A stretch of 64,000 nucleotides of DNA from Escherichia coli (GTDB taxonomy: Bacteria; Pseudomonadota; Gammaproteobacteria; Enterobacterales; Enterobacteriaceae): the NCBI RefSeq assembly GCF_024223415.1, contig NZ_CP100500.1; one strand, 5' to 3'. A model generated the notes under the pieces. It ran no database searches, had not been told where the DNA came from, and saw only the letters and a list, made by a program, of their open reading frames with translations. Both the position numbers and the translations under genes were made by a program. Within the stretch, counting starts at the first letter, position 1. The number at the start of each line of letters is the position of its first letter. Of the stretch, positions 4,051 to 8,837 are shown in pieces.

Positions 4051-4257
4051 ATGGCAGAAGAGAAAAAAGGCGGGGTGACGGTCTACATAAGCCCCGACAT
4101 CGTGGAGGCGCTCAAGGAACGCCACCAGCAGAATGTAAAAGCAGGCATTGCGGCAGGACTTGATCCGCTGGCGATGGTTGAGCCGTCAACAGGCTGGCAG
4201 GTGCGTACCTATTTACGTGCGGCGCTGGGTATCAATCAGGTTCACGGAGGTGAATAA
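4051..4257 (+). CDS. hypothetical small protein (68 aa), first gene of capsid module
   Basis: ORF in track with AAGAGGAA RBS; stop overlaps start of major capsid gene. Confidence 0.45.
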   Translation: MAEEKKGGVTVYISPDIVEALKERHQQNVKAGIAAGLDPLAMVEPSTGWQVRTYLRAALGINQVHGGE

Positions 4258-5312
4258 TGACAGGCAAAGCAACGGCACTTACAACTAACCAGCTTTTCGC
4301 GTACCTGAATCGCGGGGATATTTCGGAATTAAAATTCAGTCCGCTGTTTACCACGCTGTTTTTCCCGAACGTGGCGACCTTCAACACCCAAAACATCATG
4401 CTGGACACCCTGGACATTGAAGAGGTTACGATGTCAGCGTTCTGTTCGCCTATGGTGGGTAGTCAGGTCCAGCGCGATAAAGGGTACGAAACCAGCACAA
4501 TCAAACCTGGCTACATGAAGCCAAAGCACGAAATCGATCCAACAAAGACCATCATGCGCATGGCTGGAGAAGATCCGGCACAGCTTAACGACCCAACCTA
4601 TCGCCGTATGCGCCTGATTACTGGCAACATGCGCCGCCAGGTAAACGCCATTAAAGCGCGTGTTGAATGGCTGGCGGTGAATGCGGTAACGACCGGAAAA
4701 AACATCATTGAGGGCGAAGGCATAGAACGCTATGAAATCGACTGGAAAATACCGGAAAACTGCATCATACAGCAGGCCAGTGGTAAAAAATGGTCCCAGC
4801 AGGATAAAGACATGCACGACCCAATCTATGACATCGAGCTTTATGCTGATCAGGCAGGTTGCCCCGCCAACGTCATGATTATGGGCGGTGAGGTATGGCG
4901 CACATTACGCAGCTTTAAAAAATTCCGTGAACTGTACGATCTTTCCCGTGGATCAGAATCCGCCGCCGAGCTGGCCTGTAAAAACCTGGGCGAAGTGGTG
5001 AGCTTTAAAGGCTATCTTGGTGATCTGGCCCTTATCGTCTATTCCGGCAAATACACTGACAGCGACGGCACCGAAAAATATTTCCTTGAGCCTGATTTGC
5101 TGGTCCTGGGTAACACCAATAATAAAGGGCTGGTGGCATATGGTGCGATTATGGATCAGGAAGCGGTAAGAACGGGCGCAACGCAAAACATGTACTACCC
5201 GAAAAACTGGATTGAGGACGGCGATCCGGCGATTGAGTACGTGCAGACGCACAGCGCACCGCAGCCGGTACCGGCAGATATTCGCAAATTTGTTACCGTC
5301 AAAATTGCTTAA
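4257..5312 (+). CDS. major capsid protein, lambda gpE family
   Basis: 351 aa; segments FSPLFTTLFFPN and PGYMKPKHEIDP match lambda gpE (FDPLFLRLFFRES, PGYVKPKHEVNP) as I recall it; similar length (341 aa) and conserved C-terminal block. Confidence 0.8.
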   Translation: MTGKATALTTNQLFAYLNRGDISELKFSPLFTTLFFPNVATFNTQNIMLDTLDIEEVTMSAFCSPMVGSQVQRDKGYETSTIKPGYMKPKHEIDPTKTIMRMAGEDPAQLNDPTYRRMRLITGNMRRQVNAIKARVEWLAVNAVTTGKNIIEGEGIERYEIDWKIPENCIIQQASGKKWSQQDKDMHDPIYDIELYADQAGCPANVMIMGGEVWRTLRSFKKFRELYDLSRGSESAAELACKNLGEVVSFKGYLGDLALIVYSGKYTDSDGTEKYFLEPDLLVLGNTNNKGLVAYGAIMDQEAVRTGATQNMYYPKNWIEDGDPAIEYVQTHSAPQPVPADIRKFVTVKIA

Positions 5313-5323
5313 CGGGGGATTCT

Positions 5324-5659
5324 ATGGACGCTCCATATATTGAGTTATTTGCAGGCAGCCAGCAGGTATCCACGACGCTGGTACATTTTGCCGCTGATGC
5401 TGGCGTTATTCAGGAATTTACCCCGCTGATGCTGGCAGACAATGGCGAGTTTAAGGCGTGGGATGGTCAGGAATCTGGCAAAGCTGTTTATCTGACTTCG
5501 CACCCCGTGGACACGTCAAAGCAGAAATCAGCACAGTGTTACAAAACGGGGATATTCAATATTGCCGCCGTTAACTGGCCTGACAGCGTCGACACCGATG
5601 CGAAAAAATGCGCCGCCTTTGCGGGTTCCGGCGTATCCGTTCAGCCGCTGGCCCGATAA
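5324..5659 (+). CDS. head decoration protein, lambda gpD family
   Basis: 111 aa; TPLMLADNGEFKAWDG and YKTGIFN...AAFAGSGVSV match lambda gpD (TPLMLDTSSRKLVAWDG, YKSGTF...TAFAGTAISIV); same size as gpD. Confidence 0.7.
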   Translation: MDAPYIELFAGSQQVSTTLVHFAADAGVIQEFTPLMLADNGEFKAWDGQESGKAVYLTSHPVDTSKQKSAQCYKTGIFNIAAVNWPDSVDTDAKKCAAFAGSGVSVQPLAR

Positions 5660-5671
5660 GCAGGGGGAACG

Positions 5672-6085
5672 ATGGCAACGAATGAAAGTATCATGACGCT
5701 ACCGCTGGCGAGTAAATTTAAAGCCGAAGCGCGGGCAATGGCTGACAGAGGTTTATCAACCTACGAGGCCATACACCGACTAAACAAACTGGAAGAACAG
5801 GACAAGCCGCGCGCTGATGCGATTATGGCGCTTCATGAATCTGACGACTACCAGCCGCTGTTACGTGCAATGGCTAACGTGCCTTGTATCGATGTTGGTA
5901 CGGCTAAAAGCATCCTTAGCATGACCATAGAGCAGGAACGCCCGAAGGTTGCACCAGAGCTTACTTCAGCCTTTGAAAACTTTATGGACATGCACAGCCC
6001 GAAAGCCGTATCAGCTGGCATGGCATACGATGGCAGAACCCCGTGCGATGACGGCGACATCGACCGCATACTGAAAACCATCTGA
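5672..6085 (+). CDS. hypothetical protein (137 aa) of capsid/packaging module
   Basis: ORF in track with GGGGGA RBS; no family recognised. Confidence 0.45.
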   Translation: MATNESIMTLPLASKFKAEARAMADRGLSTYEAIHRLNKLEEQDKPRADAIMALHESDDYQPLLRAMANVPCIDVGTAKSILSMTIEQERPKVAPELTSAFENFMDMHSPKAVSAGMAYDGRTPCDDGDIDRILKTI

Positions 6086-6091
6086 GACAAG

Positions 6092-6115
6092 GCCGGAGAA
6101 ATCCGGCTTTTTTTG
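6092..6115 (+). terminator. rho-independent terminator
   Basis: GCCGGAGAAATCCGGC hairpin followed by TTTTTTT; same terminator module as at 3817. Confidence 0.6.
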
Positions 6116-6200
6116 CGGGTCCTTTCCGGCATGTGGACCCGTTACGGGGCGTCGACCTCGCACGTTTTCGCTATTTATGACGTTTTTCCGTGAAGGTGAC
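6110..6200 (+). other. lambda-type cos site 1 (cosQ-like, cosN GGGCGTCGACCT at 6147-6158, downstream segment)
   Basis: GGGTCCTTTCCGG...GTTACGGGGCGTCGACCTCGCACGTTTTCGCTATTTATGA closely matches the lambda cos region as I recall it (ACGGGTCCTTTCCGG...GTTACGGGGCGGCGACCTCGCGGGTTTTCGCTATTTATGAAAATTTTCCGG). Confidence 0.7.
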
Positions 6201-6247
6201 ACCACCACCACTTGATTAATATTTAACCATGTAGTTAAGGTAACATT

Positions 6248-6682
6248 ATGATTGATAAAGCTTGTTTTGTAAGTCAGCAGGAAATAGCTGAACATTTCAA
6301 TGTTAACAGAACCACTATTCGCGCATGGACCAAACAGGGGATGCCGTATCTTAATGCGGATCGCGGAAAGTCTGGCGGTTATCACATCGGGCATACATTG
6401 TTTTGGTATTCAGGTAAAAGCCATCTTCAGACCATCGGATATCACGTAGAAACCAGTGCGCTGGAAAAAATTATGTTTGCCAGGCTGCTTTCATCTGAGC
6501 GTGACGAGTACTCCAGTGAAGAAACAGAACATCGATTTGATGAAGGTTTGCAGATTTACGGCTATTCACCGGAAGATGTGAGCAAGGCACGAAATAAAAT
6601 GGCTGGCTTTCTGGCTGGGTGGCGTCATGCCGTAAGCGTTCGCCGTGCCAGCATGGAGCAATCAGCCGATACAGAACAGTAA
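6248..6682 (+). CDS. terminase small subunit, lambda Nu1-like (N-terminal winged HTH)
   Basis: 144 aa; QQEIAEHFNVNRTTIRAWTKQGMPYL...HTLFWYSGK aligns with lambda Nu1 KKQLADIFGASIRTIQNWQEQGMPVL...AVIKWYAER; about 90 bp downstream of cosN-like site as in lambda. Confidence 0.7.
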   Translation: MIDKACFVSQQEIAEHFNVNRTTIRAWTKQGMPYLNADRGKSGGYHIGHTLFWYSGKSHLQTIGYHVETSALEKIMFARLLSSERDEYSSEETEHRFDEGLQIYGYSPEDVSKARNKMAGFLAGWRHAVSVRRASMEQSADTEQ

Positions 6683-6729
6683 AGCCGATAACTTGTTAAT
6701 CACGCGCAGCAATGCGTGTGATTTTTGCA

Positions 6730-6850
6730 CACTTCCGGTTAACGGGTACGATGTCCGGTTTGTTTGTACATTTTTTGCACATGTCCGGTTCGCAGAAAGC
6801 ATGTTTTTATATTTTTCAGATAGTTAACTTGCAGAGAAACCGGACATGGA
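6730..6850. repeat. repeated TGTCCGGTT motifs (putative cosB-like terminase small-subunit binding sites)
   Basis: CACTTCCGGTT (6732), GATGTCCGGTT (6759), CATGTCCGGTT (6790) direct, and AACCGGACATG (6839) inverted. Confidence 0.5.
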
Positions 6851-6935
6851 TCCCGAAAAATTTTCATAAATAGTGAAAACGCGCGGGTTCGACGCCCCGT
6901 AACGGGCCATAATTCCAGAAGGACCCGACGACACC
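6830..6935 (-). other. lambda-type cos site 2, inverted relative to cos site 1
   Basis: Reverse complement reads GGGTCCTTCTGG...CCCGTTACGGGGCGTCGAACCCGCGCGTTTTCACTATTTATGAAAATTTTTCGGG, paralogous to site at 6110-6200 and to lambda cos. Confidence 0.65.
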
Positions 6936-6960
6936 AGACTATCAGAGCGATGGGGGCACA

Positions 6961-7242
6961 ATGACAGAAGCCGAACTACTGGGATTAATCCGCCGCGTTA
7001 CCGGAATCAGCCAGCAGCATGACGAACAGGCCACGCAGCCGGACAGCGTGACCGCCGAAAATTATGTGCGTGTTGTTGCGGAGGTGATGCGCCGTGACGG
7101 TATTGAGCTTAACGGCGTGGATATGCGCGACATACGGATCCGCGTTCTGGAAATGCTGGCATACCGTCGCCGCGTGCAGACGTACAGGGAAAAAGCAAAA
7201 ATAACGTACCACTGGAAGAAGCCGGAACGACTGCGTACGTAA
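6961..7242 (+). CDS. hypothetical protein (93 aa)
   Basis: ORF in track; weak RBS; last ORF of element before repeat-rich end. Confidence 0.3.
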   Translation: MTEAELLGLIRRVTGISQQHDEQATQPDSVTAENYVRVVAEVMRRDGIELNGVDMRDIRIRVLEMLAYRRRVQTYREKAKITYHWKKPERLRT

Positions 7243-7366
7243 TACGTACGGACATCGAGATAACGCAAAATTGCGCTGGCTACATCCCTCACATCTGAGG
7301 ACTGATAACAAGCTGCCTGAAAGACAGTCACAAACTACGAAATTTTCGCAGTTTAATTAATGGTCA

Positions 7367-7670
7367 GCTTAATCGCTAACCCGCTGATATTTTCGGAAAC
7401 ATCAATTTGAGGAAGTCGGCGCGGTAACTCGCTGAACTTAAAGCAAAGCGCAAAATTGCGCTGATTACTGGTTGGAATTGTTCCAGAGTGCAAATTTGCA
7501 CTCTGGCCTAACCCGTTGATTATTTCGAAAACCTGCAATGCAGGAAATCGGGGAAGTAAGCCTAAGCTATTGATTGTTTCGAAAACCACCATTGGGGGAT
7601 GTCGGGAAAGTAAGACTAACCCATTGATTCTTCCACAATCCTCAATGTGAGGAGGCCGGACATCGTGACA
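7367..7670. repeat. four imperfect direct repeats of about 54 bp (CTAACCCNTTGAT...GTAAG), three in tandem
   Basis: Units at about 7373-7427, 7507-7560, 7562-7615, 7616-7670 share CTAACCC(G/A)(C/T)TGAT ... TCGG..AAGTAAG and each contains a short internal inverted repeat. Confidence 0.6.
7483..7506. promoter_or_regulatory. 24-bp perfect palindrome CCAGAGTGCAAATTTGCACTCTGG
   Basis: Perfect dyad symmetry seen directly; nearby related inverted repeats GCGCAA-AA-TTGCGC at 7448-7461 and CGCAA-AA-TTGCG at 7264-7275. Confidence 0.5.
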
Positions 7671-7954
7671 GAGCGTGACAACCAGGTAACTAATCTCGCT
7701 GGTGGGCGTGATGTCGATATGGTGATCCCCATAACGGGTTATCCGTGATCATCCACCAGCTTCATGGCAGATAGCCGGAAAATGATAACGGTTAAGCAAA
7801 ACTGCCAGCAAATTTCCCTTTTGTTTGTTATTGTTCGTCGTTGTTCGTAGAGCTTCAACAAAATGTGTGGTCAGTTGTGTGGTCAGTTTTGAGGTTTTTA
7901 ATTCTTATGTGCTGAAAAACTTATTAATTATCAACTGATAACAAAAATTAGTAA

Positions 7955-8048
7955 GAAATACCCGTATCACCTGATCTGGATAATGCCAGCGTAGGGAAGT
8001 CACGGACCACCAGGTCATTGCTTCTTCACGTTATGGCAGGAGCAAACT
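7955..8048 (+). promoter_or_regulatory. 3' portion of thiM TPP riboswitch (thi-box) and expression platform; 5' half of aptamer absent
   Basis: GAAATACCCGTATCACCTGATCTGGATAATGCCAGCGTAGGGAAGT matches the well-studied E. coli thiM aptamer 3' half from memory; expected upstream GGGGTGCCCTTCTGCGTGAAGGCTGA is replaced by AT-rich unrelated sequence. Confidence 0.6.
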
Positions 8049-8837
8049 ATGCAAGTCGACCTGCTGGGTTCAGCGCAATCTGCGCACGCGTTACACCTTT
8101 TTCACCAACATTCCCCTCTTGTGCACTGCATGACCAATGATGTGGTGCAAACCTTTACCGCCAATACCTTGCTGGCGCTCGGTGCATCGCCAGCGATGGT
8201 TATCGAAACCGAAGAGGCCAGTCAGTTTGCGGCTATCGCCAGTGCCTTGTTGATTAACGTTGGCACACTGACGCAGCCACGCGCTCAGGCGATGCGTGCT
8301 GCCGTTGAGCAAGCAAAAAGCTCTCAAACACCCTGGACGCTTGATCCAGTAGCGGTGGGTGCGCTCGATTATCGCCGCCATTTTTGTCATGAACTTTTAT
8401 CTTTTAAACCGGCAGCGATACGTGGTAATGCTTCGGAAATCATGGCATTAGCTGGCATTGCTAATGGCGGACGGGGAGTGGATACCACTGACGCCGCAGC
8501 TAACGCGATACCCGCTGCACAAACACTGGCACGGGAAACTGGCGCAATCGTCGTGGTCACTGGCGAGATGGATTATGTTACCGATGGACATCGTATCATT
8601 GGTATTCACGGTGGTGATCCGTTAATGACCAAAGTGGTAGGAACTGGCTGTGCATTATCGGCGGTTGTCGCTGCCTGCTGTGCGTTACCAGGCGATACGC
8701 TGGAAAATGTCGCATCTGCCTGTCACTGGATGAAACAAGCCGGAGAACGCGCAGTCGCCAGAAGCGAGGGGCCAGGCAGTTTTGTTCCACATTTCCTTGA
8801 TGCGCTCTGGCAATTGACGCAGGAGGTGCAGGCATGA
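8049..8837 (+). CDS. thiM: hydroxyethylthiazole kinase
   Basis: 262 aa ORF, recognised ThiM sequence; overlaps thiD start. Confidence 0.95.

Follow-up and report, generated by a model that had tools for sequence, protein, structure and literature searches.

Opposed lambda-type cos sites flank rppA in an Escherichia coli phage-inducible chromosomal island, and the second resembles the cos of PhiR12-type phages

In a 64,000-nt stretch of the Escherichia coli contig NZ_CP100500.1 (assembly GCF_024223415.1; hereafter the window), two lambda-type cos sites face each other across rppA, a gene for a redirecting-phage-packaging (Rpp) protein. By gene content and order, this is the known cos1-rppA-cos2 module of phage-inducible chromosomal islands (PICIs), in a close relative of the prototype island EcCICFT073 at another insertion site. 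Taken as a whole, the data are best explained by an EcCICFT073-type module in which cos1 is used through RppA and cos2, a PhiR12-type phage cos, probably provides a second, Rpp-independent packaging specificity. The module itself was characterised genetically and structurally in 2018-2019, and as a first description our analysis adds nothing. What is new is the assignment of cos2 to phage cos sites of a defined small terminase (TerS) specificity group, exchanged modularly between islands and able to flip in islands without rpp. All coordinates are those of the window, with the strand given as (+) or (-).

Results and discussion

Two opposed cos cores flank rppA

A 70-nt inverted repeat, 79% complementary, pairs 6124-6193 with 6851-6920. 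The 21-nt lambda cosN core GTTACGGGGCGGCGACCTCGC matched the window only twice, at 6141-6161 (+) with one mismatch and at 6883-6903 (-) with three mismatches, where no match was expected (100 shuffles); this search returned no further cos core in the 64 kb. Both sites were aligned to the authentic lambda cos (NC_001416). They have in common cosQ GGGTCCTT, the cosN 12-mer and a ...TTTTC.CTATTTATGA segment, and both also align to the cos of phage 21 and PhiR12, with cosQ, the 12-nt cosN and I2 in lambda order and spacing. Compared with the lambda cosN 12-mer GGGCGGCGACCT, identity was 11/12 at cos1 and 9/12 at cos2. The sites face each other with cosB inward, in the order cos1 (+), rppA (+), cos2 (-), as follows.

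6117..6180 (+): cos1 core, with cosQ-like GGGTCCTTTCCGG, cosN GGGCGTCGACCT (6147-6158) and an I2-like segment ...CGCTATTTATGA; 55/65 aligned columns identical to lambda
6188..6328 (+): cosB of cos1, RppA-responsive, its limits set by homology with the primers used for the phi80 chimeras (Fillol-Salom 2019)
6248..6682 (+): rppA, 144 aa, with a Nu1-like winged helix-turn-helix (HTH) N-terminus
6730..6848 (-): cosB of cos2, a putative R-box array of CATGTCCGGTT at lambda-like positions; 86% identity over 178 nt to the PhiR12 phage cos
6864..6926 (-): cos2 core, with cosQ-like GGGTCCTTCTGG (6915-6926), cosN GGGCGTCGAACC (6897-6886) and ...CACTATTTATGA; 49/64 aligned columns identical to lambda

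An earlier reading of the letters, made without database searches (the sequence-only reading), had proposed that a Nu1-like gene is flanked by two inverted cos sites of lambda type. The inverted repeat, the cosN matches and the lambda alignment all bear this out. Its further observations, that the cosB regions are not lambda-like and that an R-box-like repeat array follows the second site only, also held, with no comparable repeat after cos1. The concern that one copy might be an assembly artefact was dispelled by sequence comparison, as E. coli CFT073 has the same pair, and so do the 56 loci retrieved for comparison (31 distinct cassette sequences).

That reading had called the repeated motifs novel, but neither they nor the sites are: cos1, cos2 and the divergent cosB of EcCICFT073 were published by Fillol-Salom et al. 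(ISME J 2018; Mol Cell 2019). Window cos1, directly upstream of rppA, is the published 'EcCICFT073 cos1', and window cos2, read on the strand opposite rpp, is 'EcCICFT073 cos2'. In Fig. S5 of Fillol-Salom, 'cos.1' extends into the start codon of rpp and is window site 1; 'cos.2' has CATGTCCGGTT...AACCGGACATG, finishes with the 3' end of rpp in reverse complement, and is window site 2 (-). The inverted layout is thus implicit in the published data, because 'cos.2' ends in the reverse complement of rpp, and the words 'inverted' and 'orientation' occur in neither the 2018 nor the 2019 paper.

The two sites have been studied genetically in EcCICFT073. With either cos, a plasmid can be transduced by lambda and phi80; transfer of the island was lower when cos1 was deleted, higher when cos2 was deleted, and abolished when both were deleted (Fillol-Salom 2018). 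Residual transfer is obtained with cos2 alone (Fillol-Salom). Why some islands have two cos sites was left open, and the island cosB was called completely divergent (Fillol-Salom et al.). We found no discussion of the nature of cos2 or of the CATGTCCGGTT motif in the searchable literature.

The rppA product and cos1

Window RppA was 95.1% identical to the c1503 product (RppA) of E. coli CFT073 and matched the crystal structure of RppC (PDB 6HLK) with E=1.6e-33. The TerS profile PHROG 57 covered only residues 7-54 of the protein, and the C-terminal TerS profile PHROG 1790 gave no match in it. In alignments, Rpp proteins were 30-40 residues shorter than Nu1, phage 21 gp1, PhiR12 TerS and the TerS of an island in strain Nissle 1917, and had no C-terminal similarity to them. 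The gene is therefore not the small terminase gene that it was first taken for: without a C-terminus for binding the large terminase (TerL), its product is not a true small terminase of the Nu1/TerS kind. It has instead the features of an Rpp protein, namely a Nu1-like winged-HTH N-terminus, a length in the range of about 139-154 aa, and no TerL-binding C-terminus. RppA heterodimerises with the helper TerS rather than engaging TerL itself, and the helper TerS is required (Fillol-Salom 2019).

The cosB of cos1 overlaps the first 81 nt of rppA and contains a single R3-type element with no repeats. An element termed R3-PICI was proposed at cos1 bp 48-65, identical at bp 55-63 and without repeats, like phage N15 (Murialdo & Feiss 2022); cos2 goes unmentioned in that paper. 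In the window, R3-PICI is CACCACCACCAC at 6200-6211 (bp 54-65 from cosN), with ACCACCACC at bp 55-63. RppA, RppB and RppC islands share a conserved block of this cosB, GTGACACCACCACCACTTGATTAA, even with a different cosN type. RppA blocks helper recognition of phage cosB and stimulates transfer of cos1 only, and when cosB regions were swapped in EcCICFT073, the cosB of cos1 responded to RppA and that of cos2 did not (Fillol-Salom 2019). The sequence-only reading had the island's own TerS redirecting a helper large terminase to its own cos. Helper packaging is indeed redirected, as published, but RppA is no terminase subunit and acts together with the helper TerS.

The R-box array of cos2 is of phage type

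Counted on the minus strand from cosN, the repeats in the cosB of cos2 lie near the positions of lambda R3, R2 and R1.

6838-6848: R3-like, direct, +50-60 from cosN
6780-6790: R2-like, inverted, +108-118 from cosN
6750-6760: R1-like, inverted, +138-148 from cosN
6730-6740: fourth, degenerate copy, inverted, +158-168 from cosN

Exact copies of TGTCCGGTT lie at 6752 (+), 6782 (+) and 6838 (-), that is, three within 95 bp compared with 0.46 expected per 64 kb. A weak match to an integration host factor (IHF)-like site lies between R3 and R2 (6814-6826) and was not relied on.

When cos2 was compared with phage genomes by BLAST, it matched five PhiR12 records (PhiR12_1, _2, _2_star, _4 and _5) with 86% identity over 178 nt, and the match extends through cosQ, cosN and the repeat array. 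In PhiR12_1 (PV340549) the array has the canonical location, and a 169-aa Nu1-family TerS comes about 150 nt further on, with TerL after it. This TerS is lambda-like in its C-terminal half but differs in the DNA-binding region at its N-terminus. E. coli 2014C-3011 has a prophage remnant in which the same array adjoins a TerS that is 98.8% identical to the PhiR12 type.

The array, designated type A, was further sought in IMG/VR with a scan for its R3-type motif in cos context, which gives lower bounds. At least 71 matches were obtained, at least 55 of them with a PhiR12-type TerS downstream in the same orientation. At least seven were cos2 sites of islands with rppA on the opposite strand, and at least one was a chimera (locus L145, described below). 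At least eight had no TerS or Rpp match downstream; these were mostly island cassettes without rpp, and one (L058) was a phage-flank site at a contig end.

A second array, type B, is found at cos2 of other islands. Among its IMG/VR matches, 43/76 precede a different full-length TerS with another N-terminus. Some of these phage matches are on contigs of phage size (41-51 kb), and one (L172) pairs type B with the alternative cosN of RppB islands. The phage counterparts of type B surfaced only through the exact-motif scan of IMG/VR; BLAST of a type-B cos2 (L027) against the phage collection returned a single short match, in a PICI-like record. In complete E. coli genomes, megablast with the type-B cosB gave 31 matches, all 100% identical, several of them in genomes that had also given island matches.

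Across lambda, phage 21, type A, type B and the Nissle-island type, the R motif co-varies with the recognition-helix region at the TerS N-terminus, which supports reading the repeats as R-boxes. The putative R array of cos2 is identical to that upstream of PhiR12-type TerS, and the putative element of cos1 is a single one of R3 type. On these comparisons, the TGTCCGGTT repeats are candidate R-boxes of a phage TerS type and not of the island protein, and cos2, with all the parts of a phage-type cos, falls in the PhiR12 specificity group and is a captured phage cos.

The repeats had earlier been read as the target of an island protein, such that a TerS-like product of the island binds TGTCCGGTT and brings the helper TerL to cos2. 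The lambda R3/R2/R1-like positions of the repeats and the Nu1-like winged-HTH of the adjacent gene product are in keeping with this. However, RppA of EcCICFT073 boosts cos1 plasmids only, only chimeras with the cosB of cos1 respond to it, and an Rpp without a TerL-binding C-terminus requires the helper TerS. Moreover, the same array stands at the 55 or more phage-context sites beside a different TerS with no rpp, as the PhiR12-type cosB upstream of a phage TerS, and islands with near-identical RppA have type B instead of type A at cos2. This reading is already largely refuted, and we regard it as very improbable.

cos1 is constant and cos2 is exchanged among islands

To the 25 Rpp loci taken from IMG/VR were added CFT073, Nissle, O157 and an RppC island, leading to the 56 loci and 31 distinct cassettes mentioned above. 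All 31 are convergent cos pairs by construction, having been selected as such with cosB inward. Their cosB architectures were Rpp1/A (10), Rpp1/B (11), A/B (4), B/A (2), Rpp1/D (1), N/21-like (1) and untyped (2). The second site was a full cosQ-cosN-I2 unit in 31/31, with a recognisable R-box array in 28.

The cosB of cos2 was of several types. Type A (CATGTCCGGTT) is that of the window; type B has GGTTGTTGT with R3 direct, R2 inverted and R1 direct; a 21-like type is present in the Nissle island; and type D is present in the RppC island. Near-identical RppA coexists with either type A or type B at cos2. In RppB and RppC islands, an alternative cosN type is found at both sites together. As judged from these alignments, the cassette is modular: the cosB of cos1 is constant while that of cos2 is exchanged among at least four phage-like types. 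The island of Nissle 1917 (L003, 9067-10006) encodes a full-length 180-aa Nu1-family TerS in place of Rpp; its cos1 has its own triple R-box, GGTTGGTGTATT, and its cos2 a phage-21-like cosB. A locus of O157:H7 (L033), with the same cos1-slot class as L003, also encodes a full-length 180-aa Nu1-family TerS instead of Rpp.

The cosN variant G6T (GGGCGTCGA...) is present at 6152 and 6892, hence at both cos sites of the window, and likewise at both in one other locus (L025); in none of the 31 cassettes does it occur at one cos only. The same cosN variant at both sites of an island suggests that the two changed in concert, through conversion or because both match one TerL, and the shared G6T could stem from short-tract conversion. 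The cosN of cos2 has three changes from the lambda 12-mer, G6T and two more, and no other cassette of the 31 has the resulting variant GGGCGTCGAACC.

Wholesale gene conversion between the two sites was considered as well and rejected, as each of them resembles its orthologue in other islands more closely than it resembles the other site.

Islands without rpp and cassette flipping

Some islands keep only 70 nt of rpp; one of their cos sites is of type A and the other of type B. Their inter-cos segment of 0.6 kb occurs in both orientations relative to unchanged flanks (L050, L085, L204 and L207 in one group; L057, L097, L103, L150 and L193 in the other). The L057 cassette is the L050 cassette reversed, with 96.7% identity over the full length and both flanks co-linear, and the orientation switches within the cosN stretch that they share. 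In complete genomes, single-piece matches gave the A/B order in 8 (H167-H174) and the B/A order in 3 (H192-H194), and strain GF4 (NZ_CP172217) carries one A/B and one B/A island at different loci. Among the 22 distinct cassettes of Rpp-containing loci, none had the rppA segment flipped. Speculatively, flips may proceed by re-ligation of two like cohesive ends after cuts at both inverted cosN, as an alternative to homologous recombination.

A near relative of the window island (L116; capsid 98.7%, decoration gene 100%, type-A cosB 99.3%, and the same G6T cosN) has the type-A cosB in the cos1 slot and no rpp. From the layout of such islands, a phage-type cos would suffice alone where rpp is missing. 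In L145 (9725-10160), a cos1-slot core is followed by a PhiR12-type cosB and by nine codons from the start of TerS, which continue in frame into the 3' half of rpp. The structure of this chimera marks it as a direct trace of island recombination with a PhiR12-type phage at cos.

That such recombination with a phage cos occurs is also what one would expect if cos2 were a functionless passenger, a leftover of recombination that is tolerated or mildly harmful and kept by linkage. The higher lambda- and phi80-mediated transfer after deletion of cos2, the degenerate cosN of the window's cos2, and the failure to see co-residence with type-B prophages in the IMG/VR sample agree with this explanation. 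It does not account for the full cosQ-cosN-I2 unit at every second site or the R-box array at 28 of them, nor for the repeated replacement of the cosB of cos2 by intact phage arrays rather than its decay. In addition, the cosN type of cos2 tracks that of cos1, islands that lack rpp depend on two sites of this kind, some transfer persists with cos2 as the only site, and a plasmid with cos2 can be transduced. We consider a passenger role unlikely.

A model for two packaging specificities

The steps proposed for RppA and cos1 draw on published experiments with an island 94-95% identical to that of the window. RppA, a truncated Nu1-like protein, would pair with the helper TerS, stop recognition of phage cosB, and steer the terminase to the cosB of cos1. 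TerL would then nick the lambda-type cosN, and island concatemers would be packaged rightwards from cos1. A helper with a TerS that reads the cosB of cos2, here of PhiR12 type, would start packaging at cos2 and proceed leftwards. As a second, Rpp-independent specificity, cos2 could widen the helper range to phages that Rpp may not capture; with lambda or phi80 as helper, it would be nearly useless or slightly costly.

Termination by lambda terminase is polar and needs cosQ upstream of cosN, and packaging from cos finishes only at a second, co-oriented cos. Two cos sites in direct orientation would delete the DNA between them. A terminase coming from one of the inverted sites would meet the other site backwards and not cut, and the packaged unit would keep the whole island. 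The inverted arrangement could thus let two specificities coexist because termination is polar. In its general form, the proposal is that paired inward cos sites are a dual-specificity cassette, with one slot used through Rpp or an island TerS and the other holding a captured helper-phage cos (A, B, 21-like or D), and with an inverted layout that blocks cross-termination and allows flips at cosN. We hold this general form to be about evenly balanced between right and wrong, and the narrower explanation for the window, RppA-dependent cos1 with a PhiR12-type cos2, to be probable.

Several points weigh against a helper-specific role of cos2. The polarity argument is drawn from lambda genetics of the Feiss laboratory, and the link between cos2 and a PhiR12-type helper from sequence comparison. 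The unique cosN variant GGGCGTCGAACC may mean that this copy of cos2 is weakened. Among isolate genomes in the IMG/VR type-B scan, none combined an island of type B with a phage contig of type B, which is weak evidence as prophage calling is incomplete. The helper of CFT073 itself, phage 4, has a 21-type cosB and not type A (Fillol-Salom). Finally, deletion of cos2 raises transfer by lambda and phi80 (Fillol-Salom 2018); therefore, any selected function of cos2 lies with other helpers.

PICIs are known to interfere with helper packaging (Fillol-Salom 2019), and cos2 is a faithful copy of phage cosQ-cosN-cosB. It might accordingly act as a decoy that soaks up helper terminase, serving interference and not transfer. 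However, a terminase that starts at a complete cos on a concatemer would package the island, so that decoy and packaging are hard to separate, and interference is already provided by Rpp. A decoy function seems to us highly doubtful.

The sequence-only reading had also suggested that packaging could start in both directions and take in flanking chromosome, with thiMD on one side; outward packaging in situ from the opposed sites would then transduce the flanks. It is true that cos1 points toward thiM and that both sites are cleavable in plasmid tests of the CFT073 orthologues. Yet the sites face each other, and packaging from cos1 would cross cos2 and the right arm of the island before reaching thiM. 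A second, co-oriented cosQ-cosN would be needed to end it, and there is no other cos core in the window for termination. Published island transfer, moreover, requires int and excision. Lateral transduction finishes without a second specific site; the sites here are of cos type, not pac, and face inward. The packaging of thiMD is thus unsupported and can be given hardly any credence.

If the favoured explanation of cos2 as a second, Rpp-independent specificity is correct, its identity may explain why some islands have two cos sites, and it offers a testable answer to that published question. It also suggests that the helper range of an island could be read from its cos2 type, with a bearing on predicting the spread of islands that carry virulence genes.

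Surroundings of the module

From its gene content, the DNA between position 1 and about 7950 of the window belongs to a PICI of the EcCICFT073 family beside thiM, of which it forms the right-hand part. A 1.25-kb region was about 94% identical to CFT073, with the gene order of EcCICFT073. The primase (825-2573), followed by an ssb-like gene, lies to the left of the cassette; primase, ssb, capsid-like, decoration-like and rpp genes are present and co-linear with CFT073, and int and alpA would be left of position 1. The other features near the module are listed below.

4257-5312: gpE-like major capsid protein gene (c1499-like)
5324-5659: gpD-like decoration protein gene (c1500-like)
5672-6085: Nu3/scaffold-like gene (c1501-like)
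6089..6114 (+): hairpin and T-run ending the scaffold-like gene, AAGGCCGGAGAAATCCGGCTTTTTTT; conserved left flank of the cos1 slot
6701..6727 (+): terminator-like hairpin and T-run after rppA (consensus scan, pattern match only)
6961..7242 (+): conserved 93-aa open reading frame (ORF), PHROG 1561 (E=1.6e-56); right flank of the cos2 slot

Deletion of c1499 or c1500 in EcCICFT073 altered neither interference nor transfer, as published. The same left flank precedes the cos1-slot site in related islands, and the 93-aa ORF adjoins cos2 in all of them; thiM and thiD then follow in the window. Promoter and terminator scans gave consensus-level matches only, and no RNA family reached the Rfam gathering thresholds in 5900-8200.

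At thiM, only the 3' half of the aptamer of the thiamine pyrophosphate (TPP) riboswitch is present (7880-8048), the 5' half being replaced by island DNA. The Rfam TPP score there was 36.4 bits, below the gathering score of 54.3. The right junction of the island (near 7953) appears to lie inside the riboswitch, and from this position it could alter regulation of thiMD.

The right arm of the island contains several repeats. Four direct repeats of 44-54 nt, 70-78% alike, lie in 7374-7659. Related islands at other insertion sites have these repeats, together with the surrounding 7259-7792, in their own right arms, and the repeats are therefore island DNA. A perfect 24-nt palindrome, CCAGAGTGCAAATTTGCACTCTGG, is present at 7483-7506, and the palindromic CGCAAAATTGCGCT occurs twice (7264-7277 and 7447-7460).

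Comparison with known systems

The closest known system is EcCICFT073, which has the same order of primase, ssb, c1499-, c1500- and c1501-like genes, rppA and 93-aa ORF, and the same cos positions, orientation and cosB sequences. The window island differs in being inserted at thiM and not next to phoQ, with int and alpA outside the window, and in its cosN, with G6T at both sites and two further changes at cos2.

Phage N15 has a single R3 in its cosB, and cos1 is similar, with a lone R3-type element (bp 55-63) and no repeats. The likeness covers cos1 only, and the cos1 element is read through Rpp-TerS and not through a phage TerS alone. The staphylococcal cos islands SaPIbov5 and SaPIbov4 carry the helper cos and are comparable in that a helper cos is copied directly for packaging; SaPIbov4 has two putative cos sites, so that a second cos has been noted there too. 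However, their sequences and hosts are unrelated and they have no Rpp.

The layout and spacing of the R elements of cos2 relative to cosN are those of the cosB of lambda and phage 21 (R3-I1-R2-R1), and the phage 21 R-box CATGTCGG closely resembles CATGTCCGG. Unlike these phages, cos2 has another R sequence, associated with another TerS DNA-binding domain, and R1 is inverted in the window and direct in lambda. The cosQ-cosN-cosB of cos2 also matches that of PhiR12-type phages. In the phages, the array is followed by the cognate TerS and TerL, whereas in the window island, which has no such TerS, it continues into rppA, whose 3' end lies there on the other strand. Common to both are CATGTCCGGTT at +50 and AACCGGACATG at about +108 and +138.

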